This document shows, in pieces, positions 3,025 through 63,241 of a stretch of 64,000 nt of DNA (positions are counted from its first letter, which is position 1; each line of letters starts with the position of its first letter). Position numbers and translations under genes: made by a program. Below the pieces are notes generated by a model. It was not told where the DNA came from. It worked only from the letters and a program-made list of their open reading frames with translations, and searched no databases. The stretch is from an uncultured Vampirovibrionales bacterium (GTDB lineage Bacteria > Cyanobacteriota > Vampirovibrionia > Vampirovibrionales > Vampirovibrionaceae): assembly GCA_964387265.1 (NCBI GenBank), contig CAYLWC010000006.1, positions 21,272 to 85,271 on the forward strand, read 5' to 3'.

Positions 3025-3094
3025 ATCTTCGGGTTATGGACGTCCAATTCTCCCATATTATAAGTGACCCGCACGCTTCCGTCTAATGGTGATC

Positions 3095-22726: not shown

Positions 22727-23857
22727 ATGGCACAACCGCTTCAGTTGAAAAAGCCTTGTCAAAAGGAAGATTTTCGGGATTTCAGCCTGGAGAAGCAGCA
22801 GCCGGAATGGCACGATTGGAAATGGCAGTTCCGCAACCGAGTGACCACGCTGGAGACCTTAAAGCAGTTTATGCTGGTTACGCCTGAGGAGGAAAAGGCC
22901 TTTCAGGCCGCTGGGAAGAACCTGCCCTTTGCGGTGACGCCCTATTATCTGGATTTGATCAACCCCTGTGATCCCCAAGATCCTATCCGGAAGACCGTGA
23001 TCCCCAGAGTGGCCGAGTTCACCACCGCCCCATCAGAAATGGTCGACCCCTGTGGGGAAGACAGCCATATGCCGGTGCCGGGGCTGGTCCATCGCTACCC
23101 GGATCGGGTGTTGTTTCTGGTGAATGAGACTTGTTCGGTCTATTGCCGTTACTGCACCCGCAGTCGTCTGGTGGGGAGCGGGAAGCATCAGGTCGAGTTT
23201 GGTGAGGTGTATGAGTACCTCCGGAATCACCCGGAAGTGCGGGATGTCTTGATTTCCGGCGGGGATCCCCTGGTGATGTCTGACGAGAAGCTGGAAGGGA
23301 TTATCCAAAATCTACGGGCCATTCCCCACTTGGATATTGTGCGGATCGGGTCCAAAATCCCTGTGGTGTTGCCGCAGCGCATTACCGATGATCTGGTGAA
23401 TATGCTCAAAAAGTGCCATCCCTTCTACATGAGCATTCATTTCCTGCACCCCGCGGAAATTACGCCGGAGGTGGAAGCCGCTTGCAACAAGCTGGCGGAT
23501 GCGGGTATTCCTACCTTTAGCCAGACGGTGCTGCTGAAAGGGGTGAATGATGATCCGGCGGTGATGAAGGAGCTGATGCTCAAACTGCTGAAGATCCGGG
23601 TACGGCCTTATTACATTTACCAGTGCGATCCTGTTCAGGGGACCACCCATTTCCGCACTTCTGTGGATAAAGGACTGGAAATCATGGAGCATTTGCGGGG
23701 GCATATTACCGGGTACGGGGTGCCAACCTATGTGATTGACGCGCCTGGCGGGGGTGGGAAGATTCCCATCTCGCCTGATTACATTGTTTCCCGTGAGCCT
23801 GGGAAGATCACCCTGCGCAACTTCCGAAATCAAGTTTACGAGTACATCGACTCCTAA
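22727..23857 (+). CDS. KamA-family radical SAM aminomutase (lysine 2,3-aminomutase-like).
   Basis: CSVYCRYCTR CxxxCxxC radical-SAM cluster and KamA-type N- and C-terminal regions. 376 aa. Confidence 0.85.
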   Translation: MAQPLQLKKPCQKEDFRDFSLEKQQPEWHDWKWQFRNRVTTLETLKQFMLVTPEEEKAFQAAGKNLPFAVTPYYLDLINPCDPQDPIRKTVIPRVAEFTTAPSEMVDPCGEDSHMPVPGLVHRYPDRVLFLVNETCSVYCRYCTRSRLVGSGKHQVEFGEVYEYLRNHPEVRDVLISGGDPLVMSDEKLEGIIQNLRAIPHLDIVRIGSKIPVVLPQRITDDLVNMLKKCHPFYMSIHFLHPAEITPEVEAACNKLADAGIPTFSQTVLLKGVNDDPAVMKELMLKLLKIRVRPYYIYQCDPVQGTTHFRTSVDKGLEIMEHLRGHITGYGVPTYVIDAPGGGGKIPISPDYIVSREPGKITLRNFRNQVYEYIDS

Positions 23858-23865
23858 TGCCTTCA

Positions 23866-24040
23866 AGTGCTCCTAACTTATGGGCACTTGCACTGTCTGA
23901 GCACGCTGAGTTATAAAAAATGTCCAGCCGAAGCCTTGCAGGCTGGGCCACATGCAATTTGCTTGAAGCGCGCGCAGTTAGCAGAGTGCCCTAGCGGGCG
24001 GGGGTTGTAGGGGGGCCAGTAATGCGGCCCCTACAAAAAA
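23866..24040. repeat. Structured intergenic repeat element, copy A (second copy at 57972-58130).
   Basis: Shared blocks with copy B: CTAACTT, TGAGCAC, ATAAAAAATG, a hairpin with the identical 11-nt loop GAAGCCTTGCA, GCGCGCAGTT, CCTAGCGGG, and a 3' GC hairpin. All three helices are maintained by compensatory substitutions. Confidence 0.7.
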
Positions 24041-24152
24041 ATTGCAGATATGAACAGTAGTAAATGGATTTTTTACTACATATCAAGTAGATTGTTTTTT
24101 CCCCTACAATAGCAAGTGTGACGTTGCGAACTTCTTTGGGAGAACATGGGTT

Positions 24153-26705
24153 TTGGCTAATATCTGGCAGTTTCGGGGTCCAGAATCGGTTGAATTGACC
24201 GCAGATATTCTGCAAGCGGCAGAGGGGGCCCCGCTCCTGGCGAAGCTGCTCCTGAATCGAGGCATCTCAACCCCGGAAGAGATTCAGGAATTTCTGGATC
24301 TGGAAAGCTATGAGCCGACTTCTGGCTGGGAATTGCCGGATATGAAGGTGGCGGTCGAACGGATTCTAAAGGCCCTGGAGACTCAAGAACATATCCTGAT
24401 CTACGGGGATTTTGATGTGGACGGGATTACCGGTACCTCGATCCTTTACGAAACTCTCAAATACCTGGGCGCCAACGTTAGCTATTACATCCCGGATCGG
24501 GCTACCGAAGGCCATGGCCTTAATACCGCTGCGGTGATTCGCTTGACCAGCACCCGGAAAGTCAAATTGGTGATTACCACCGATACCGGGATCACCAATT
24601 TTAACGAAGTGAGCCTGCTCAATGGCCTCAAGGTCGATACCATTGTCACGGATCACCATGAATTGCCGGAAAACCTGCCTCCCGCCATCGCCAACGTCAA
24701 CCCCAAACGATTTCCCGATCAAAGTCATCCTCTGGCGCCCTTATGCGGGGCCGGGGTGGCCTATAAACTCTGTGAACTGTTGCTGGAAACCAAAAAAGGA
24801 GAGGCAGGGCTTCTTTTCGCCAATCAATTGCTGGACTTGACGGCTATCGGGACCGTCGCGGATTTGGCGTCGCTCTTAAAAGAGAACCGCTATCTGGTCT
24901 ATCAGGGCCTGAAGATTCTAAATACCCGAGGGCGGCTGGGTATCCAGAAAATCCTGGAGCAGGCCGGGACCAACCCGGAGGCCGTTTTAACCAGTGAAAC
25001 CGTTGGCTTTACCATTGGCCCCAGGCTGAATGCGATTGGCCGCCTGGATAATGCCAAGGACGCCGTGGAGCTGCTGACCACCAAGGACCCGGAACGGGCT
25101 CAGGTGATTGCCTCTCGCCTGGAGTATCTCAACCGACAGCGGCGAGAACTCTGTGATCAGACGTTTTTGGAGGCTGAGCGACACCTTTCCGCGACTGGCG
25201 GGCTGGGCAGCCGACGGGCGATTATTCTGGCCAGCCCCCACTGGAACCTGGGGATTATCGGCATTGTCGCTTCCCGGTTGATTGAAAAGTATCATGTGCC
25301 GGTCTTTATGATGGTGGTGGATGAGTCCAAGGGGGAAGCCCGGTGTTCCGCTCGCTCTATCCCTGGTTTTCACCTTCATGATGAGCTGTTGGCATTGCAA
25401 CAGTACTTCCTCCACTTTGGCGGCCATGCCGGGGCTGGTGGCTTTTCCATCAAAATGGAGCAGTTGGAGCGTTTCAAGCAGGAACTGTATGCCCTGACGG
25501 AGCGAAAAATCACCGAAGAGCAGATGAAACCTATTATAGAAGTAGAGGCCAAGCTGGAATGGTCTCAGCTGAACCCGCATTTGGTGGAGCTGATTGCGAA
25601 AATGGCCCCCTTTGGCATGGACAACCCCGCGCCCAAGTTTGTGCTGGAAAATGTGACTATCTCAGCCCAGCGGGGGATTGGGGAAGGCGAGCGCCATCTC
25701 AAGCTCATGCTGACGTGTAAAGGCGGAACCGCCCCCATTGAAGGCTTGATCTGGAACGCCAAGGAGCGCCTGAACCCGAAATATCCCCATAATTTTGTGG
25801 TGGTGCCGGAATTGAATACCTTTAACAACACCACCAAGGTCCAGCTGATGATTGAGGATTACCAGTCTCCAGAAAACCGGGATCTTCCGGTCACCTCGGC
25901 TACCAAGGTCGCCTCAGTTGTGGCCACCGCCCCGGTGAAGGTGGCGACCGTACCCGCCGTGGCAGAAGAGGACCCCGGTATCCGCTGGGTGGATCACCGG
26001 AGTCGGGAGTCCGTGGAGTCCTTTATTGGCCAGTTAATGCGACCCTTGCAGGAACAGAGAAAGCTGGTGATTTATCATGAGGGCCGAAAGCCAGAGATTC
26101 CCTTCCTGAAAGAAGAGCTGTTGTGTGGGCGCCTGGACTTGCGTCAGGCCGATGAGCTGATTCTCTGGGATCTGCCGCCGTCACTAGAGAGCTTGCAGCA
26201 AGTGCTTCAGGGGGTGCAACCGGAAGTGATTCACCTGGTGGGTGGAAAATACCAAACGGTTCCGGTCTTCCCTACGGGGCAAATGTTTCTGAAGGTGATT
26301 TTGCAAGGGATCAAGCGCCAAATGGCCGAGGAAAAGGCCAATGTGGTCGAGGTTGAGTTTGCCACGTTTGCCGGGAAACTCGCTGGAACCGAACCGGTGG
26401 TGACCAACGGCCTGATTTTGCTGGGCAAACTGGGGCTGATCCATGCTGGGGTGGTGGAAGGCTCCAAGGAATCATCGGAAGCCCCCTGGTCTGCCATTCG
26501 AGTCACCCTGAACCCGCAGCCGCCCGCCATTGAAAACATTACCCAGTACCTGGAGTTTATGGCCTTTCAAAACGCCCTGCGGGAAGTTGGGAAATTTCGG
26601 AACTGGCTGTTAAGCGCCCCTCTTGATAGAATTAAAACCACAGTACTGTTCAATCGCCATGAGAAGGAAGCAAACCCCCATGTCTACCACGCCGCAGCTC
26701 GATAA
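24153..26705 (+). CDS. recJ: Single-stranded-DNA-specific exonuclease RecJ (long form, 850 aa).
   Basis: DHH motifs (LIYGDFDVDGITG, VITTDTGI, VTDHHE), DHHA1 domain (GGHAGAGG), then an additional C-terminal extension of about 270 aa. Confidence 0.85.
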   Translation: MANIWQFRGPESVELTADILQAAEGAPLLAKLLLNRGISTPEEIQEFLDLESYEPTSGWELPDMKVAVERILKALETQEHILIYGDFDVDGITGTSILYETLKYLGANVSYYIPDRATEGHGLNTAAVIRLTSTRKVKLVITTDTGITNFNEVSLLNGLKVDTIVTDHHELPENLPPAIANVNPKRFPDQSHPLAPLCGAGVAYKLCELLLETKKGEAGLLFANQLLDLTAIGTVADLASLLKENRYLVYQGLKILNTRGRLGIQKILEQAGTNPEAVLTSETVGFTIGPRLNAIGRLDNAKDAVELLTTKDPERAQVIASRLEYLNRQRRELCDQTFLEAERHLSATGGLGSRRAIILASPHWNLGIIGIVASRLIEKYHVPVFMMVVDESKGEARCSARSIPGFHLHDELLALQQYFLHFGGHAGAGGFSIKMEQLERFKQELYALTERKITEEQMKPIIEVEAKLEWSQLNPHLVELIAKMAPFGMDNPAPKFVLENVTISAQRGIGEGERHLKLMLTCKGGTAPIEGLIWNAKERLNPKYPHNFVVVPELNTFNNTTKVQLMIEDYQSPENRDLPVTSATKVASVVATAPVKVATVPAVAEEDPGIRWVDHRSRESVESFIGQLMRPLQEQRKLVIYHEGRKPEIPFLKEELLCGRLDLRQADELILWDLPPSLESLQQVLQGVQPEVIHLVGGKYQTVPVFPTGQMFLKVILQGIKRQMAEEKANVVEVEFATFAGKLAGTEPVVTNGLILLGKLGLIHAGVVEGSKESSEAPWSAIRVTLNPQPPAIENITQYLEFMAFQNALREVGKFRNWLLSAPLDRIKTTVLFNRHEKEANPHVYHAAAR

Positions 26706-27252: not shown

Positions 27253-27286
27253 AAAAAAGTGACCTGTTGAGACAGGTCACTTTTTT
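27253..27286. terminator. Bidirectional intrinsic terminator between convergent genes.
   Basis: AAAAAAGTGACCTG-ttgaga-CAGGTCACTTTTTT: a perfect 8-9 bp stem flanked by A6 and T6. Confidence 0.75.
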
Positions 27287-27326
27287 ATGATGTTTGTAGC
27301 GTTAGAAAACGCAACCTGTGAGCCCT

Positions 27327-34656: not shown

Positions 34657-34692
34657 AAAAGCCGGTGACTCTATAGTGACCGGCTTTTCTGC
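34657..34692. terminator. Bidirectional intrinsic terminator-like hairpin between convergent fabI and fliY.
   Basis: GGAAAAGCCGGTGACT-ctat-AGTGACCGGCTTTTCTG: about a 10-bp stem with one mismatch, flanked by A4 and T4. Confidence 0.6.
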
Positions 34693-34710
34693 ATTTTCTG
34701 GCAGGTTGGA

Positions 34711-42218: not shown

Positions 42219-42282
42219 GAAATGACTGTCGGGGTGTCTTTCGGGACACCCCGGTTTTTGGATATAATCCCATTGAATACTG

Positions 42283-51022: not shown

Positions 51023-51057
51023 TTTTTTTATCTGTGATGCCTATAATTTGCAGGTTT

Positions 51058-51148
51058 TCAAGGGGCAGAGCCCCTTGAAATAAATACTAGAGGTAGGAGT
51101 GAGCTGGAAAGTAGATTGGCAATCGGATCCAAGGGGCTGGCCCCTTGG
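51058..51148. repeat. Pair of near-identical GC-rich palindromes, 51 bp apart, in the nth-flgM convergent intergenic region.
   Basis: TCAAGGGGC-aga-GCCCCTTGA at 51058-51078 and CCAAGGGGC-tg-GCCCCTTGG at 51129-51148. Neither is followed by a T-tract on either strand. Confidence 0.45.
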
Positions 51149-51259
51149 AAGGATCAAGCAAAATAAAACCCCCGAAAACCTTCGAGGGTTGGCAATTGCA
51201 AGGAAACAGATTGCATTAAAAGGAACATTGAGAATTTTGGCTAGCGCAGAAAAGTTAGA

Positions 51260-54081: not shown

Positions 54082-54164
54082 GCGCCGAGAGCAGCATTCA
54101 AGAAAACACTGCCCGTTTCCGGGCAGCGTTTTTCTTCTGATTGATTGGGTGGGTGAACGGATGA

Positions 54165-56474
54165 TTAGCGATGGGCAGCGGGTTCAAGAACCGGACCCGC
54201 CTGATCATCAGGTTCATCATCCCGGTAGGACCAGCCGGTTTTCAGGCCGAGAACAAACCAGCCCAGGGCCAGAACGCCAATGGCAAAAATGGTATCGCCA
54301 ATCACCCGGAGCCAGCGCAAAATATCCATAAGTTCCGTCTGGGTGAATTCAGCGGAACGGGCATACCACATTCCCTGTTCCACGCTGGCCCAGGTCTGCA
54401 TTAACCCTCGGGGTAAATCAGACAGCAAGACCATCAACGCCAGCCCAATGTTAATGGACCAGAATCCGATCGCCAGCCACCTGCTATTCCAGGCACGATG
54501 AACCGCCAGCCCTTTCAGGCAAAACAGCATCAAACCGATCCCCAGAATACCGTACACGCCAAACAGGGCGGTATGGGCATGGACGGCGGTGGTATTCAGC
54601 CCTTGCATATAAAACAGAGCAATGGGCGGGTTAATCAGGAAGCCAAACAGACCGGCCCCAACAAGGTTCCAGAAGCCCACGGCGATAAAGCAGAAAATGG
54701 GCCACTTATACGCCTTTACCCAGTGGGCTGCCCGGCTCAGGTTCAGGTTCTCATAGGCTTCAAAGCCAATCAATACCAGGGGAACTACCTCCAGGGCGCT
54801 AAATGTTGCCCCCAGGGCCAGGACCCCCACCGGCGTACCTGTAAAGTACAAGTGGTGGAATGTTCCGATAATCCCCCCAAACAGGAAGACAATCGTGGAG
54901 AACAACACTGCGGCGGTGGCGGTGGATGTTCTCAATAGTCCCATTCGGGTAAACAGGAAGGCAATCGTGACGGTGGCGAATACTTCAAAGAAGCCTTCCA
55001 CCCATAGGTGAACCACCCACCAGCGCCAGTATTCCGCCATCGCCAGGTTTGTGTGCTGGCCGTAGAAAAAGCCGGGCACGTAAAAAATGGGAATCGCCGC
55101 GGACGCCAGTACAAACAATCCCAGCAGATGCTTGGAATCCTCACCGTTTTTGAAAGCCGGACGAATGGCCCGCCATACCAACCCCAGCCAGAGGAACAGG
55201 CCCACCAGCAAGAATCCTTGCCAGAAGCGGCCCAGATCCAGGTATTCATAGCCCTGGGTTCCAAACCAGAAGCTCTGGGTCAGGTCGTCCATTCCCGGAA
55301 CAATCGACATCCACTCCCCGCCCAGAGAGCCAACCACAATAACCAGCAGACAGACAAACAGGAAATTAACGCCCAGTTTCTGATACGGCGGCTCATACCC
55401 GGAAATGGCCGGGGCAATAAACAGCCCGGTCGCAAGCCATGCCGTGGAGATCCAGAAAATGGCGAGCTGTGTGTGCCAGGTTCGGCTGACAGCATAGGGG
55501 AGCCACTGATCCAGCGGAATCCCGTAAAAGCCGGAACCCTCTACCCCGTAATGAGCCGTAACGGCTCCCAAACCGACCTGAGCGACCACCAGTGCCATGA
55601 CCACCCAAAAATATTTGAGTGTCGCTTTCATGGACGGGGTTGGGTTAATGGCCAGCAACGGATCCGTTTCTGAGATGGCAGTCTCATGATTGCCCTGACC
55701 CCGGCTATTGGAGGCATAATACCAGCACAATCCTCCCACGCCAGCGAGCAGCAAGACAAAGCTGATCACCGACCAGACCACGGTCGCGCCGGTGGGTTGG
55801 TTGTTGATTAATTGCTCAGGGGGCCAGTTTTGGGTATAAGTCACGTTTTCTCCCGGCCGGTTGGTTGAGGCTGCCCAGGAGGCCCAGAAGAAAAAGCTGT
55901 TCAGCTTGCGCCGGTTTTCCTCGCTCCGTACCTTATTAGCCGGGATGGCGTAGGCGTCCCGTAATTCCACGATCTCCGGATCGGGGTCATTGCCAAACAA
56001 AGACGCGTAATGTTCCCCCACTGCCACAATGGCTTGGGCTCTCAGGGGAGAAATCGTGAGTGTCTGGGTTTCAGGGTTGTATGTATTGGTTCGCATCAGC
56101 TGAACCAGGCGGGCTTTGAGCATGGCCAGCTGTTCGGGTGGCAGCTCGTTGTAGTCGCTGACGCCATAATCTTGCAAAGCCCAGGTGTTCAGGTAATACT
56201 CCGCCTCCCGGTGAATCCAGTCGGCGGTCCAGTCCGGGGCTACATAAGAGCCATGTCCCCAGATGCTACCCACCTGATGCCCACCCATGGCCTGCCAGAC
56301 GTTTTGTCCGTCCTGAATATCCTTTTGGGTAAAGAGGGTCTTACCGTCTTCAGTGACGATTTGCTTGAAGACGGGTGGGGCCTTTTGATAAATCTCCAGT
56401 CCGTAGTAGCCCAAGACGGTGAACGATGCCAACAGAACCACGGCCAGCGTAAACCAAAGCCTGAAATAGTGCAT
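54165..56474 (-). CDS. norZ: Quinol-dependent nitric-oxide reductase large subunit (qNOR, NorZ/NorB heme-copper oxidase family).
   Basis: About 770 aa with an N-terminal extension and a single TM before a periplasmic domain. 12-TM heme-copper oxidase core with conserved His ligands (HHLYF, WVVHLWVEG, HTALFGVYG). Confidence 0.8.
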   Translation of the reverse strand: MHYFRLWFTLAVVLLASFTVLGYYGLEIYQKAPPVFKQIVTEDGKTLFTQKDIQDGQNVWQAMGGHQVGSIWGHGSYVAPDWTADWIHREAEYYLNTWALQDYGVSDYNELPPEQLAMLKARLVQLMRTNTYNPETQTLTISPLRAQAIVAVGEHYASLFGNDPDPEIVELRDAYAIPANKVRSEENRRKLNSFFFWASWAASTNRPGENVTYTQNWPPEQLINNQPTGATVVWSVISFVLLLAGVGGLCWYYASNSRGQGNHETAISETDPLLAINPTPSMKATLKYFWVVMALVVAQVGLGAVTAHYGVEGSGFYGIPLDQWLPYAVSRTWHTQLAIFWISTAWLATGLFIAPAISGYEPPYQKLGVNFLFVCLLVIVVGSLGGEWMSIVPGMDDLTQSFWFGTQGYEYLDLGRFWQGFLLVGLFLWLGLVWRAIRPAFKNGEDSKHLLGLFVLASAAIPIFYVPGFFYGQHTNLAMAEYWRWWVVHLWVEGFFEVFATVTIAFLFTRMGLLRTSTATAAVLFSTIVFLFGGIIGTFHHLYFTGTPVGVLALGATFSALEVVPLVLIGFEAYENLNLSRAAHWVKAYKWPIFCFIAVGFWNLVGAGLFGFLINPPIALFYMQGLNTTAVHAHTALFGVYGILGIGLMLFCLKGLAVHRAWNSRWLAIGFWSINIGLALMVLLSDLPRGLMQTWASVEQGMWYARSAEFTQTELMDILRWLRVIGDTIFAIGVLALGWFVLGLKTGWSYRDDEPDDQAGPVLEPAAHR

Positions 56475-56723: not shown

Positions 56724-57008
56724 ATGATGACAAGTAATGTACGGGCCAGCCACTTATTAGTAGCCACCGAAGAGGAAGCCAAGCAGTTGCGGCAGGAGAT
56801 TGAGGGTGGTGTGAGTTTTGCGGAAGTGGCCCAGCGGGTATCGAAGTGTCCTTCTGGAAGAAATGGTGGGGATTTAGGCTTTTTTGGCCGGGGCCAGATG
56901 GTGCCGGAGTTTGATCAAGCCGCCTTCACCCTGCCGGTGGGCCAGCTCTCTGAACCCATCCAAACCCAATTCGGCTGGCACCTCCTCGTGGTGACTGAAC
57001 AGAAGTAG
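56724..57008 (+). CDS. Parvulin-type peptidyl-prolyl cis-trans isomerase (PpiC).
   Basis: ASHLLV...GGDLGFF...GWHLL parvulin motifs. 94 aa. Confidence 0.8.
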   Translation: MMTSNVRASHLLVATEEEAKQLRQEIEGGVSFAEVAQRVSKCPSGRNGGDLGFFGRGQMVPEFDQAAFTLPVGQLSEPIQTQFGWHLLVVTEQK

Positions 57009-57129
57009 TTTTTACAGATCATTTCTCATTCCTTATATCAAGTTTTAACTACTATCGCTGTAGGTTTAATTTCTTGTTACAAAGTTCATGCAATAAAGTC
57101 CTTTAAATTAAATAGGAAAAATCTAGTCG

Positions 57130-57963
57130 ATGGAGAATCAACCACCAAATGTGAACTCGCTCACAGATAAGGAGCTTCAGATTAAGCTTGCTGAATATAA
57201 AATGTGGACTGAAACTTCAACGAAGCATATAGATCTTATTTTCAAATCTGTTGTTTTCGTTATTACAGCAAGTGGTGCTGTTGTTGTATTTAATTTAAAT
57301 AATAACTTTGAATTTCCTTTTTCTCTAAGCTTGTTATTTATTGCATTATTATGCGGTTTTATGTCTGTCATATTCGGTTATCCTGCATTTTATTTAATAA
57401 GCTCCTGCAAAAGGATGGAAGAATTAACTACTGAAATTAACGCAAAGCTGCGCCCCACTCTAGATTTACTTCAAAGGATACTCTCCATTTTTTCTGTGCT
57501 TTTCTTGCTACTTTCTATCATATTTTCCAGTTTATTCTTTCGACCATGCTTGTTTGGAATTCAAAACACAGTTAGTAACTATGAACACTCAACTAGCTTA
57601 GAAGATGATAGTCAAACAATTAAAGCACACCAAATAGAGTATCAAAACTATAGAGATAAAATTAATAGTTCAGAACACAAGCTAGCTTACTTAAATAAGA
57701 GACTTACTGAAATTGACACAGAATTAAACAACCTTCTCAATAAACCACAGAAATCACAGACAGAAATTAACCAGATTAAAAACTTAAAAAATGAATTATT
57801 AAAACACAAACAGGAACTAAAACAAGAAATTGCCCACATAAAGAAAATAAGACAAAGCATTCAAGTAAAAATTGATAAAGATAAAGTATTACGCGATAAA
57901 TACCAACAGCAAGCCTTGCACTATGCGAAATTAGAGCAACTACTACTTAATGAAATAAACTAG
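57130..57963 (+). CDS. Hypothetical membrane protein (three predicted TM helices plus a C-terminal ~110-aa coiled coil), encoded by a low-GC (~33%) horizontally acquired gene.
   Basis: Long clean ORF of 277 aa. The strong AT-rich composition contrasts with the ~55% GC of the flanks. TM segments are VVFVITASGAVVVF, LLFIALLCGFMSVIFGYPAFYLI and ILSIFSVLFLLLSIIFSSLFF. The K/E/Q/L-rich heptad-like tail is NELLKHKQELKQEIAHIKKIRQ. Confidence 0.6.
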   Translation: MENQPPNVNSLTDKELQIKLAEYKMWTETSTKHIDLIFKSVVFVITASGAVVVFNLNNNFEFPFSLSLLFIALLCGFMSVIFGYPAFYLISSCKRMEELTTEINAKLRPTLDLLQRILSIFSVLFLLLSIIFSSLFFRPCLFGIQNTVSNYEHSTSLEDDSQTIKAHQIEYQNYRDKINSSEHKLAYLNKRLTEIDTELNNLLNKPQKSQTEINQIKNLKNELLKHKQELKQEIAHIKKIRQSIQVKIDKDKVLRDKYQQQALHYAKLEQLLLNEIN

Positions 57964-57971
57964 TGTTTGCC

Positions 57972-58130
57972 CCACCTAACTTGGCCCTCGGATTGTTTGA
58001 GCACAGCGAGGGATAAAAAATGCCGAGCCGAAGCCTTGCAGGCTCGGCCACTTAAAAACCTGTCTGAGCTGCGCGCAGTTTCCGAGGGCCTAGCGGGGGT
58101 CCAGGGGGCGGCAATGAGCCCCCTGGGTAA
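57972..58130. repeat. Structured intergenic repeat element, copy B (paralog of 23866-24040). On the minus strand it forms the 3' UTR/terminator of gene 58148..58924.
   Basis: Same block order as copy A. The hairpin GCCGAGCC-GAAGCCTTGCA-GGCTCGGC has a loop identical to copy A and is followed on the minus strand by ATTTTTTAT. Outer helix GGCCCTCGGA/TCCGAGGGCC. 3' hairpin CCAGGGGGC-ggcaatga-GCCCCCTGG. Confidence 0.7.
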
Positions 58131-58147
58131 TTAACCCCAAAATATTA

Positions 58148-58924
58148 CTATAATTTATACAACGTCGCCTTCACGTTCAGGCGAATCCCGCCCGCCTCGG
58201 AGACCTCGTTAATTTGCGCCCCATGACGCAGGGGCAGCTTCATGACGAAAATATCATCCTCAGACACGCCCACAGCAGAGGCCTGACCGTATTGGTCTGG
58301 ACAACTCGTCACGGCATGAAGCACACTGGCCGCTCCGCCCGTATGCAGATCATCCACATACACATGCAGGGTTTGCCCATCGGGGTTCATGCGAGCGCTC
58401 ACATTGGCTGGGTGGGTTACGGGCGTTACGGTATAACGCATCTGGCACCCATCCGCGTTAATTTCTCCGCCACCGCTCAGGTATTGCAGGGTCCCCTTCC
58501 CCGGAAATTCCTTCTGACCTGGCCCGATGGAGAAATCAACCTGCGCGCGGGAGACGAAAACCAGGTGTCCGTTTCCGCCATCTGGGAATTGATGCCAGCT
58601 CTCACGATGTTGATCCAAGACGAGGCGATAGTTCCCATAAGCGGTGGGTGGAGCAAATGGGGTTTCGGCTGCGCGTTTTGCGGCGAAGCCTGGGGCGCAT
58701 TGTTGACGAATGGGCTCAAACTGTTGCATGAGTTGCTGAACCATGGGGTTGTCCCGCTCTTGTCCCATTTCCGCCTGCATCCGGCGAAACTCTTCACACA
58801 TCTCATCAATTTGCTGCTGGGACTGGGCCGAGGCCAGCGGCACTTGCAGGAGTAACCCCCACAAAAACAGCGCGAACATCCCACAAAGGGTCAAACTGAT
58901 ATATAGACGTTTCATCACCAACAC
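58148..58924 (-). CDS. Hypothetical secreted protein.
   Basis: Signal peptide (LYISLTLCGMFALFLWGLLLQVPLASA). 258 aa, no family recognised. Confidence 0.5.
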   Translation of the reverse strand: MLVMKRLYISLTLCGMFALFLWGLLLQVPLASAQSQQQIDEMCEEFRRMQAEMGQERDNPMVQQLMQQFEPIRQQCAPGFAAKRAAETPFAPPTAYGNYRLVLDQHRESWHQFPDGGNGHLVFVSRAQVDFSIGPGQKEFPGKGTLQYLSGGGEINADGCQMRYTVTPVTHPANVSARMNPDGQTLHVYVDDLHTGGAASVLHAVTSCPDQYGQASAVGVSEDDIFVMKLPLRHGAQINEVSEAGGIRLNVKATLYKL

Positions 58925-60475: not shown

Positions 60476-63241
60476 ATGCTGAGCCATTTTTTCAAGCAAG
60501 TGGACATTCGTTTTTTGACGTTACTGGCGTTGCTGGTGATGCTGGTTCCGGCCTCCTGGGCGATCGATCACCCCAGAGAACTGGCAGGTGTCTGGAAGGG
60601 CTCAAACGGACTGGAATATGAAATCCAGGTCAATGGCCTGGAGGTGATTCTGCTGAAGCCGGTGGGTTACTCCACGGAGCGGCAACCCCACCGGGGGCGC
60701 TTTAACCAAACAGGATTTGAGCTGGAGTTTAAACCTCGGGAAGACCATCACCTGAACTTGGAACTCCCGTTTAAGGTGCGCCATACGTTGCTCAGCTCAC
60801 CTGAATACAAGCAGATGGACCGGCTTGATTTAAGCACTCCCGGCAAAATTATCTATGTGGACCGGATAAACTGGATCACTTGGGACGGGAAGGAAAATGT
60901 CACGGATATTAAATACAATTACAAGGAGGAGCGCATCACGCTGACTCGCCCCAACGACTACTATAAGATTGGGGAAATTACCATTGACGATTCCCGGCGT
61001 CGCCAGCGGATCGCCTCCGAAGTGGCGCAAATGCAGGCTCAGATTGATGAACTGCGGACGGTCCGCCAACCGGCCCTGGAGCAAGAATTAACGACTTCTG
61101 AACAGGAGATGAAAGCGGCGGAGGATGCCTTTCAGCAAGCCACAAACCGTTATGAGGATCTGAGCGGGCAGCTCAAGGCCACAAGCGAACAATTGCGTCA
61201 ACTGGCTGAGAGCAAGAAACCGGCTTACCAGCAGTTATTGGCGGATCGTGACCAGCTTTTGAAGGAAGTGGACGCGCTCCTTTCTGTTAAGAACGATTAC
61301 TTTAAAACGGGAAACATGCAGGGGGTCAATTCTATGGACCGCCAGCTACGGGGAAAATACAATGATCTGGAGCGCCTCAACCAGCGGCTGGTGCGAGAAT
61401 TTCCCGAGGATCAGCAAATCAAGGAGTTAACCAACAATATTGAGAACTTAAAAGCGGAGCGACAAGCGGCTTTTAACGAGTATTATCAAGGAATGCTGGC
61501 CTATGACCGGGCGGTCGAGGCCCATCTGCAGAAACAGAAAGAACTGGGTCGCCTGCAAGCCCAAATCAGCCGTCGGGAGCAAGAATTGGCTTACCGGCAA
61601 CGGCCGGTGGTGGTGAGTAAGATCCGGCTCATGGTTGGGGGAGAGGTGCCTTTTGAGGCGGAGGCTTCCCAGGAGCAGGGAACCCTGCAGCGCTTTGAGG
61701 AAGACATTGCCCAGGTGGATCAAAACCTGGTGCAGTTAAACCAGTCCCTCCATGGGCTGATGCAGCAGGAAGAGGCCATTGCCCAGCAACGGCAACAGGC
61801 TAAGGAGCGATTTTTAGAAGCGGCGCAAGAGCTTAAAGCGGCTGGAGATTCGGTCTATAATACCCAAATAGGCAGCATGATTGGCCGGGCGGCGGCTGAA
61901 ACCGCCGCTTATGGGGCGGATGTGTTTATGGCCTTTAAGGATGGGGGTCTGGTGGGCGTGACCGTTGAACTGGGCGGGAAGCTTCTGGAAGCCTATCTTC
62001 AAGAAGGTGAAACCTTTGAACTGTTTGATGAAACCGCTCTTCGGGAGCAGATGATGGGCCCCATGATCGCAAGCCATCCGTTGCATCAGGCTTATGTTGC
62101 CGCGCAAAATGAGCAAGGCGAGACCGCTCCGGCTCATTATCCCGTGATAGACGGAGAGACCCAGCCTCAAGACAGTAATATGGTGGATCAGGTCTCTGGT
62201 TTCGGGACAGAGTTTGCCATGAGCCAGAAAGACAAGCTGATCATCGTCACCCCGTTAAAAGAACTGGCCACACGGGGAGTCAACATTTACAAGTACCATG
62301 ACGCTATGGGCCAGATGGATGCAGCCAGAGAGATGCTTCAGAAAAATGCCCAGGTAAGCCGGGTGGACTTTCCGGATCATCAAGCCCTCAACCCCCTTGC
62401 CCAGGCTCAGGAAGATGCGTTTTCTCGCTATCTCCAGTCTCGAGAATTGGTGAACCAGGCAGAAGACCGCTTGGCCCGAACCACCAACCCCTTGTTAAGA
62501 AAGGAGGCTCAAGAGCAGCTTGCCCATGCGACCCGACTTCAACGAGCCGCCCAGAACAACTACAACCATTTGGTGCAAGAGCAAGCTCTCCAGGCGCAAA
62601 AAATCAGCCGGGCCCGCCGAGGGATTGCTGAGGCCACGGAGCATTTGGATACATTAAAAGAAGCTGGCCAAGGCAGTATCACCAAGAGCTTAAAGAACAT
62701 GGGTAGCGGGGTGGCCAAAGGGTTGGCCGTTGATCTGCTGAAGGCCGCCGCCCACAAATGGGCGGATCATGAGGAGCGGGAAGCCTGGATTCATTTCTTT
62801 GAGAAGGAAATCGCGATGCAGGCCAACCGGCAAATTTTCCAGAAAGCCTCCAACAACTTCTGGAATCACCAGGACGCCATCAAGAACCATCAGGAGTTGA
62901 TTCAGACGTTGTCCCAGATTCGGACCGCCCTGGAAAATGATCGCTCCCGCTATTTAGCGAGCAAAGGAGACGGTGGTTTTTACATCGTGAACAACCAGGG
63001 CTTTCAACCCAAAGAATCGACCGTCATGATCCTTTCGCTGATGGGGTATGTGGGGTCTGAGGAAGTTCGGCTGGCCGAGACCGTGAGTGGCCATCCGGTG
63101 CAGCTTCGTCTCCAGAGCGGTTTGGAAGAAAACGCCCGCAGCCTGGATCATACGGATCACGCGTACCGGTTCCAACCCAATGCCATTAAATCCATCCAGG
63201 TAAAAGACAATCTCTTGCCCTTACGAATTCAATTGCTCTGA
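60476..63241 (+). CDS. Large secreted/anchored coiled-coil protein (921 aa), hypothetical.
   Basis: N-terminal signal/TM (FLTLLALLVMLVPASWA). Extensive Q/E/R/L/A-rich coiled-coil segments (aa ~170-420 and 650-800) flank a central globular region. No family recognised. Confidence 0.55.
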   Translation: MLSHFFKQVDIRFLTLLALLVMLVPASWAIDHPRELAGVWKGSNGLEYEIQVNGLEVILLKPVGYSTERQPHRGRFNQTGFELEFKPREDHHLNLELPFKVRHTLLSSPEYKQMDRLDLSTPGKIIYVDRINWITWDGKENVTDIKYNYKEERITLTRPNDYYKIGEITIDDSRRRQRIASEVAQMQAQIDELRTVRQPALEQELTTSEQEMKAAEDAFQQATNRYEDLSGQLKATSEQLRQLAESKKPAYQQLLADRDQLLKEVDALLSVKNDYFKTGNMQGVNSMDRQLRGKYNDLERLNQRLVREFPEDQQIKELTNNIENLKAERQAAFNEYYQGMLAYDRAVEAHLQKQKELGRLQAQISRREQELAYRQRPVVVSKIRLMVGGEVPFEAEASQEQGTLQRFEEDIAQVDQNLVQLNQSLHGLMQQEEAIAQQRQQAKERFLEAAQELKAAGDSVYNTQIGSMIGRAAAETAAYGADVFMAFKDGGLVGVTVELGGKLLEAYLQEGETFELFDETALREQMMGPMIASHPLHQAYVAAQNEQGETAPAHYPVIDGETQPQDSNMVDQVSGFGTEFAMSQKDKLIIVTPLKELATRGVNIYKYHDAMGQMDAAREMLQKNAQVSRVDFPDHQALNPLAQAQEDAFSRYLQSRELVNQAEDRLARTTNPLLRKEAQEQLAHATRLQRAAQNNYNHLVQEQALQAQKISRARRGIAEATEHLDTLKEAGQGSITKSLKNMGSGVAKGLAVDLLKAAAHKWADHEEREAWIHFFEKEIAMQANRQIFQKASNNFWNHQDAIKNHQELIQTLSQIRTALENDRSRYLASKGDGGFYIVNNQGFQPKESTVMILSLMGYVGSEEVRLAETVSGHPVQLRLQSGLEENARSLDHTDHAYRFQPNAIKSIQVKDNLLPLRIQLL

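Follow-up and report, generated by a model that had tools for sequence, protein, structure and literature searches.

In E. coli and Yersinia, REP and ERIC elements affect the stability of mRNA 3' ends, and REPs that lie within ~15 nt of a stop codon are said, in work by Liang, Rudd and Deutscher from 2015, to affect translation as well. At the lambda tI/sib locus, the terminator hairpin is enclosed by a longer one, which forms only in read-through transcripts. REP/REPIN elements consist of two inverted conserved sequences and a spacer and form a long hairpin that tolerates compensatory changes (PMC3116915). An integron attC site is defined by an R box (RYYYAAC and its complementary GTTRRRY), an L box, 2-3 extrahelical bases at fixed spacing and an unpaired central spacer of 5-6 nt, and it is 57-141 bp long (PMC5027507). 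Here we describe a folded repeat of ~160 bases (154-165 nt) in the genome of an uncultured Vampirovibrionales bacterium, a non-photosynthetic member of the cyanobacterial lineage, in which each copy lies just 3' of the stop codon of an unrelated gene, and we compare it with these systems.

The analysis covered one 64-kb stretch of this genome (the window), in which the two copies, A and B, lie 34 kb apart (Table 1). A blastn comparison within the window linked them at E = 2e-16, a repeat search returned 69 nt at 81% identity, and a 27-mer searched with up to 3 mismatches gave 2 matches where 0 were expected. A covariance model of the two copies, applied to the 64 kb with filters off, recovered 23870-24034 at 191 bits (165 nt) and 57973-58126 at 161 bits (154 nt). 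The first three of these searches link the two copies, and the repeat reported in the first-pass annotation is real. The window holds no further copy, the next-best covariance-model score being 9.9 bits. Over the structural alignment the copies are ~71% identical (~29% diverged), and their GC content is 0.61 in copy B and 0.58 in copy A.

The element has no protein-coding capacity. A small conserved peptide within it is unlikely: short ORFs differ between the copies, and the compensatory changes in the stems alter codons non-conservatively. A template/variable repeat pair of a diversity-generating retroelement was also rejected, since substitutions of all types separate the copies (such as T>C 7, G>C 6 and C>G 5) and the window has no reverse transcriptase.

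Table 1. Positions of the two repeat copies, their structural parts and the neighboring features within the 64-kb window.
Feature	Position	Strand	Remarks
kamA (KamA-family radical SAM)	22727..23857	+	TAA stop 23855-23857, 11 nt before copy A
Copy A	23869-24032	+	repeat of most of the copy B interval, at 23866-24037
Copy A rod domain	23869..24005	+	
Copy A H1	23882-23889 with 23984-23991	+	
Copy A H2	23897-23907 with 23967-23977	+	
Copy A A-rich loop	23913-23922	+	
Copy A H3	23922-23929 with 23941-23948	+	loop 23930-23940
Copy A 3' hairpin H4	24011..24032	+	GGGGGCC-AGTAATGC-GGCCCCT; extendable to GTAG...CTAC (24007-24034)
recJ	24153-26705	+	starts 115 nt after the copy A interval (23866-24037)
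Clear intrinsic terminators	27255-27290, 34660-34695, 54105-54140, 42230-42258		several bidirectional (A-tract, hairpin, T-tract), between convergent genes
Parvulin gene	56724-57008		stop is the left edge of the low-GC island
Low-GC island	57009..57966	+	one foreign gene (57130-57963); GC 0.27-0.32
Copy B	57969-58126	+	between convergent genes, interval 57964-58147
Copy B rod domain	57969..58100	+	MFE fold -87.6 kcal/mol, z = -5.1
Copy B outer helices		+	GCCCC/GGGGT and CTA/TAG, within the rod domain
ACCTAAC	57974..57980	+	only RYYYAAC match; no GTTRRRY partner
Copy B H1	57983-57992 with 58081-58090	+	
Copy B H2	57997-58007 with 58068-58078	+	
Terminator-like module	58012..58049	-	H3 then CAUUUUUUAU; ~100 nt downstream of the secreted-protein gene stop
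Copy B A-rich internal loop	58013-58022	+	ATAAAAAATG
Copy B central hairpin H3	58022-58029 with 58041-58048	+	loop GAAGCCTTGCA, 58030-58040
Copy B 3' GC-rich hairpin H4	58101..58126	+	CCAGGGGGC-GGCAATGA-GCCCCCTGG; dG -20.9 kcal/mol
Convergent secreted-protein gene	58148..58924	-	stop 58148-58150; signal peptide, no Pfam family

Each copy, folded alone, gives the same structure: an imperfect rod of ~130 nt capped by an 8-bp hairpin whose 11-nt loop is invariant, and then a GC-rich hairpin that stands apart from the rod. The rod is made up of two short outer helices (GCYCC/GGGGU and CUA/UAG in both copies), helix H1 (8-10 bp), helix H2, which is composite and interrupted by two conserved 1x1 mismatches, a large internal loop with the invariant AUAAAAAAUG forming its 5' side, and the terminal hairpin H3, which carries the invariant loop GAAGCCUUGCA. 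Just 3' of the rod closure come an invariant UAGCGGG and then the GC-rich hairpin H4. The invariant unpaired blocks are the H3 loop, ATAAAAAATG, GCGCGCAGTT, CCTAGCGGG and CCTAACTT.

The two copies share this one fold and have kept it through compensatory substitutions. When the copies were aligned manually by structure, each of the 35 aligned pairs proved to be standard in both, 10 of them having changed on both sides and 3 on one side, always to or from G-U; these counts are somewhat inflated by H1 having been aligned with the structure in mind, and the independent folds give the same helices. When the 3' partner was slid by 1-3 columns as a control, pairing fell to 25-50% with 0-1 double changes. 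The 70 paired columns hold 23 substitutions, so the stems are not merely frozen. Covariation alone is no proof of RNA function, because compensatory changes across the hairpin are common in mobile DNA of the REPIN type (PMC3116915).

The evidence from predicted stability differs between the copies and favors the + strand. Against shuffled sequence, copy B is clearly more stable on the + strand (z = -5.1), and copy A is not (z = -1.3). In both copies the + strand has a lower minimum free energy than the minus strand, at -70.8 vs -64.8 kcal/mol for copy A and -87.6 vs -85.3 kcal/mol for copy B. G-U pairs, too, are more numerous in the + strand folds, with 10 vs 4 for copy A and 4 vs 3 for copy B; a G-U pair on the + strand becomes an A-C mismatch on the minus strand. 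A kissing interaction between the H3 and H4 loops was considered and rejected, as it would comprise 4 bp, which is at chance level.

The only context common to both copies is their position: each starts 5-12 nt 3' of a + strand stop codon, in the same orientation. By a rough estimate, ~5% of the strand-specific intergenic positions in the window would qualify, so that finding two of two copies so placed is unlikely by chance (~0.003, likewise a rough estimate). For copy B, the geometry between two stops was as first described. The upstream TAG is at 57961-57963 and the outermost helix starts at 57969, while the stop of the minus-strand ORF (58148-58150) lies 18-21 nt beyond the element, depending on whether its end is put at the last hairpin (58126) or at 58130 as in the first-pass annotation. 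No promoter-like site was found flanking either copy. The window has 61 ORFs of at least 90 aa, which encode housekeeping functions; all were scanned against Pfam, which revealed no integrase, transposase or reverse-transcriptase domain. There is also no tRNA or tmRNA gene in the window.

Copy A had been said to follow a core gene of the kamA family, and the upstream product is indeed a KamA-family radical SAM protein whose nearest named relatives are from Vampirovibrionales/Melainabacteria. In related genomes the kamA orthologues (82-85% amino acid identity) are followed by a simple hairpin or by the next gene and never by the element. The element is therefore not tied to kamA.

Several observations on the surroundings of copy A were made along the way. 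Synteny breaks down at the 3' end of kamA (23858-24152 here; 11144-19871 in the relative L121, which has 82% KamA identity). The order here is kamA, element A, recJ, and in L121 kamA and recJ are separated by three paralogous genes of ~930 aa without a Pfam family. Other relatives have altogether different neighbors around kamA. A rearrangement that would link the two loci through the 921-aa protein encoded at 60476-63241 and the three large L121 genes by kamA was rejected, as these are not homologous. In the closest relative found (L140; 85% KamA identity), the assembled contig stops 20 nt past the kamA stop, at 3056-3075. This end might reflect an assembly-breaking repeat; the 20 nt do not resemble the element. 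Finally, the copies were rejected as attL and attR of a 34-kb island, given their identity of ~71-81% and the core functions encoded between them (recJ, flagellar motor proteins, MurJ).

Searches for relatives of the element returned no homologue. Rfam 15 gave 0 matches over the whole window at gathering thresholds, and at E <= 10 the two loci (300 nt) matched only unrelated snoRNA, miRNA and sRNA models (E = 1.4-7.7). In the genome collection, the 17-mer GCCGAAGCCTTGCAGGC had at least 120 chance matches in GC-rich genomes, and none of those listed extends past the seed by blastn or covariance model. Metagenome scans with exact patterns of 21-22 specified bases, taken from independent conserved blocks, returned 0 matches; pattern scans of viral-contig DNA returned chance matches only; and blastn against plasmids and phages returned no match. 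The covariance model found no copy in ~280 kb of related Vampirovibrionales loci, which were located by way of their kamA orthologues (82-85% identity) or of homologues (51-55% identity) of the secreted protein encoded next to copy B. Our search of the literature on repeats and non-coding RNAs in Melainabacteria/Vampirovibrionia found nothing relevant. There are two possibilities for these results: either the element is confined to this lineage, or it is too diverged for the collection scans, which required exact matches to short patterns.

Elsewhere in the window, one convergent intergenic region contains two near-identical short GC hairpins, CAAGGGGC-AGA-GCCCCTTG at 51056-51080 and CCAAGGGGC-TG-GCCCCTTGG at 51128-51149. 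They resemble H4 (CCAGGGGGC...GCCCCCTGG) and may be a separate family of short REP-like palindromes.

Stems that covary around invariant loops and junctions are the classic signature of a functional RNA, and the G-U pairs favor the + strand. The element could accordingly be read as a structured non-coding RNA family on the + strand with a function beyond 3'-end formation, for example a protein-binding or regulatory RNA freed from the 3' UTR, with the two copies as paralogues. Such a family would be undescribed, since no Rfam family matches. We consider this possible, though unlikely. No promoter or + strand terminator delimits a transcript, copy A is thermodynamically weak, and the related loci that we examined hold no orthologous copy at the same or other positions. 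In addition, compensatory changes occur in mobile DNA palindromes too (PMC3116915). Among described RNAs, 6S RNA is similarly rod-like and has, beneath its terminal hairpin, a large central internal loop that is A-rich. Unlike 6S RNA, the element lacks an Rfam match, and its rod of ~130 nt sits in a 3' UTR position with no promoter or terminator of its own.

An integron attC site was the identity to be excluded at copy B. The low-GC gene followed by copy B has the layout of a cassette, an ORF and then a folded imperfect palindrome, and the first-pass annotation pointed out that the 5' flank of copy B resembles RYYYAAC. The heptamer ACCTAAC does fit; it lies at 57974-57980, two bases to the right of the position given there (57972). 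No GTTRRRY closes copy B, there being none within 57900-58200 and none within or near copy A, and the corresponding heptamer of copy A, TCCTAAC, fails RYYYAAC. Neither copy therefore carries a terminal pair of these motifs, and copy A has neither of them. In the folds, the partner of the CTA in CCTAAC is the TAG that belongs to the conserved TAGCGGG, which leaves no 7-bp R box. An L box, spacer and extrahelical bases cannot be placed without an R box, and the rod, with several 1x1 mismatches and large internal loops, has no recognizable attC geometry.

Other properties of the element point the same way. Its length of 154-165 nt exceeds the 57-141 bp of attC sites (PMC5027507). None of the 61 ORFs has a domain of IntI or another recombinase (Phage_integrase etc.), which bears out the earlier statement that intI is absent from the window; there is no attI and no cassette array, and the copies are 34 kb apart. 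They also share long invariant blocks and adjoin core genes. The GC content of the element in copy B (0.61) matches that of the sister copy by a core gene and not the 0.31 of the supposed cassette ORF. An attC identity, which had been called unlikely from the start, is refuted on the defining R box, and the proposal that the low-GC gene and copy B form a true cassette is almost certainly wrong.

We now turn to the minus strand, on which copy B had been described as a canonical intrinsic terminator of the convergent gene. The product of this gene has an evident Sec signal peptide, MKRLYISLTLCGMFALFLWGLLLQVPLASA|Q, as read by eye. The minus-strand sequence of the module is GCCGAGCC-UGCAAGGCUUC-GGCUCGGC followed by AUUUUUUAU, that is, an 8-bp GC-rich stem with an 11-nt loop and then A-U6-A. 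The free energy of H3 is -16 kcal/mol in copy B and -11.4 kcal/mol in copy A. In the predicted nascent minus-strand RNA, H3 plus U6 forms in both copies, and for copy B the MFE and centroid structures alike contain H3. The secreted-protein gene has no other terminator-like feature at its 3' end, which makes the terminator idea reasonable. A role of H3 plus U6 in ending this transcript is thus plausible, as judged from predicted folds.

The description as canonical held only in part. A hairpin followed by a U-tract is present, and it is near-canonical: a consensus terminator scan (loops of 3-8 nt) did not call the module because its loop is 11 nt. The genome itself uses canonical Rho-independent termination, as indicated by clear hairpin-plus-U-tract terminators, often bidirectional between convergent genes, with loops of 3-6 nt. 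As an account of copy B, a terminator for the secreted-protein gene is also incomplete. H3 and the U-tract are kept in copy A, where no minus-strand gene converges and the neighbor recJ is on the plus strand. The U-tract sits inside the covarying rod of 130 nt, whose other arm lies downstream of it, and what the two copies have in common in their context is placement after a + strand stop. The element resembles Rho-independent terminators in that an 8-bp GC-rich hairpin abuts six A/T, giving a hairpin plus U6 downstream of a convergent gene on the minus strand. It differs from the bidirectional examples in being one-way, and no feature resembling a canonical terminator is present on the + strand.

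The nesting of this terminator-like hairpin in a longer one raises the possibility that the minus strand is the functional one and acts as a retroregulator by analogy with lambda tI/sib. Transcripts that end at H3 plus U6 would then be stable, and read-through would complete the rod, leading to RNase III cutting and degradation. The position of U6 inside the rod, with the second arm of the rod downstream, is as such a scheme would have it, and a minus-strand gene does converge on copy B. We give it only a slim chance. Copy A has no upstream minus-strand gene, leaving one of the two copies with a gene on the relevant strand; the minus strand folds worse, with G-U pairs turned into A-C mismatches; and the element has no sequence relationship to tI/sib.

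The first-pass annotation also noted that copy B abuts a low-GC island, and this was correct. GC is 0.30-0.32 across 57000-58000, and the GC3 of the gene at 57130-57963 is 0.29, vs 0.594 +/- 0.043 for 41 other ORFs. The island spans exactly from the parvulin stop to the first bases of copy B. The product of its gene has an N-terminal membrane domain, which is rare, and a C-terminal coiled coil, which is unique. An exhaustive search of 1.84 billion representatives found only three relatives of residues 1-149, all remote and 127-154 aa long; a word-indexed protein search found none. Matches to defense and phage families are weak and run through the coiled coil (LmuB, PbeC, SbcC-like), and no viral relatives were found. 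Because the GC of the element (0.61) is like that of its sister (0.58) and the adjacent gene has a GC3 of 0.29, the element looks native and the gene looks inserted beside it. The low-GC gene was probably a later insertion, which came to lie between the parvulin stop and a native copy of the element that was already in place. Its exact placement between stop codon and element could mark a preferred insertion point.

Two further observations concern this locus. The island boundaries, 57001-57014 and 57956-57969, have 10 of 14 bases in common (GAAGTAGTTTTTAC and AAACTAGTGTTTGC), and each includes the stop codon of the local gene; the match could be a target-site duplication or chance. A gene for a quinol-type nitric oxide reductase (NorB, with a cytochrome c-like N-terminal domain) lies at 54165-56474, 1.5 kb from the element.

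The surroundings of the copies could fit a structure that acts as single-stranded DNA in recombination or transposition, such as a landing site or an end of the REPIN or IS200/IS605 type, and that captured the low-GC gene beside its own 5' boundary, much as an integron would, without being an attC site. The two ends of IS200/IS605 elements carry hairpins that are similar to each other. The island begins exactly at a core-gene stop and ends exactly at the 5' boundary of the element, the two boundaries are alike (GAAGTAGTTTTTAC and AAACTAGTGTTTGC), element A sits at a synteny break (in L121: kamA, three extra genes, recJ), and REPIN hairpins show compensatory changes (PMC3116915). We nevertheless hold this to be improbable, since the 64 kb encode no recombinase or transposase, H3 and H4 are unlike each other, copy A has no adjoining island, and a 10/14 boundary match is close to chance when a few offsets are allowed (roughly 0.1 by our estimate).

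The element is most like the structured extragenic repeats of the REP, REPIN and ERIC kind. As single-stranded DNA or mRNA, this intergenic imperfect palindrome would fold into a long hairpin. It lies at gene 3' ends, where co-transcription is predicted, and it has conserved sequence blocks beside stems that keep their pairs through compensatory changes, as in REPINs (PMC3116915). The inverted conserved blocks of a REP/REPIN are represented by the paired YTGAGCAC and GCGCGCAG, flanked by the covarying H1 and H2c. Its long imperfect palindrome, conserved blocks, compensated stems, non-coding nature and extragenic position at gene ends together assign it to this general kind.

Membership of the REP, REPIN or MITE classes proper is not established, on four counts: (i) terminal inverted repeats of the MITE type are absent, as CNCCTAACTT at the 5' end and GCCCCYRS at the 3' end are not inverted copies of each other; (ii) no direct repeat that would represent a target-site duplication is shared by the flanks; (iii) no GTAG is common to the foot of the hairpin, as H4 starts with GTAG in copy A and with CCAG in copy B; and (iv) the window has no RAYT (Y1_Tnp) gene, whereas REPIN families have a single-copy RAYT (Y1 transposase) that is flanked by copies. 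The element also departs from REPINs in number and form. Two copies with ~29% divergence are present in the window, vs tens to hundreds of near-identical REPINs per genome, and the element is asymmetric, with a rod, a separate 3' hairpin and an invariant 11-nt terminal loop. REPINs are reported to be placed randomly in extragenic space, unlike the two copies here, which share orientation and distance to the stop codon.

We therefore favor, at about even confidence, a lineage-specific structured extragenic repeat of this general kind that has a role at 3' ends and includes a one-way terminator for the opposite strand. A terminator or REP identity had been offered earlier as the fallback to attC; the evidence favors that direction, and two copies do not suffice to prove it. 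We infer the 3'-end role on the + strand from the likeness to REP and ERIC elements. The transcript of the upstream gene would carry the element as its 3' untranslated end, and there the rod and the GC hairpin would fold into a stable structure that may serve as an exonuclease barrier or a processing site. Given its closeness to the stop codon, this structure may influence translation termination as well. In the opposite direction, the A6 that precedes H3 would be read as a hairpin plus U6 and act as a one-way intrinsic terminator. At locus B this terminator would end the convergent secreted-protein transcript, and at both loci it would block antisense transcription into the upstream gene.

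The structured repeat described here is real and had not been catalogued before; it belongs to a known general kind and was seen twice in one metagenome-assembled genome. At present the two-copy observation mainly rules out an integron. A more far-reaching view is that the element is an undescribed module of the Vampirovibrionales lineage that marks the point after a stop codon, as either a new 3'-UTR RNA class or a single-stranded-DNA landing site; we think this quite unlikely. If the landing site were true, a foreign gene placed precisely between a core-gene stop and the element would represent gene capture without an integron integrase. Should the family turn out to be common throughout the source genome, no earlier structured extragenic repeat would be on record for Vampirovibrionia, and the element would be a clean case of a one-way terminator within a larger conserved structure directly behind stop codons.
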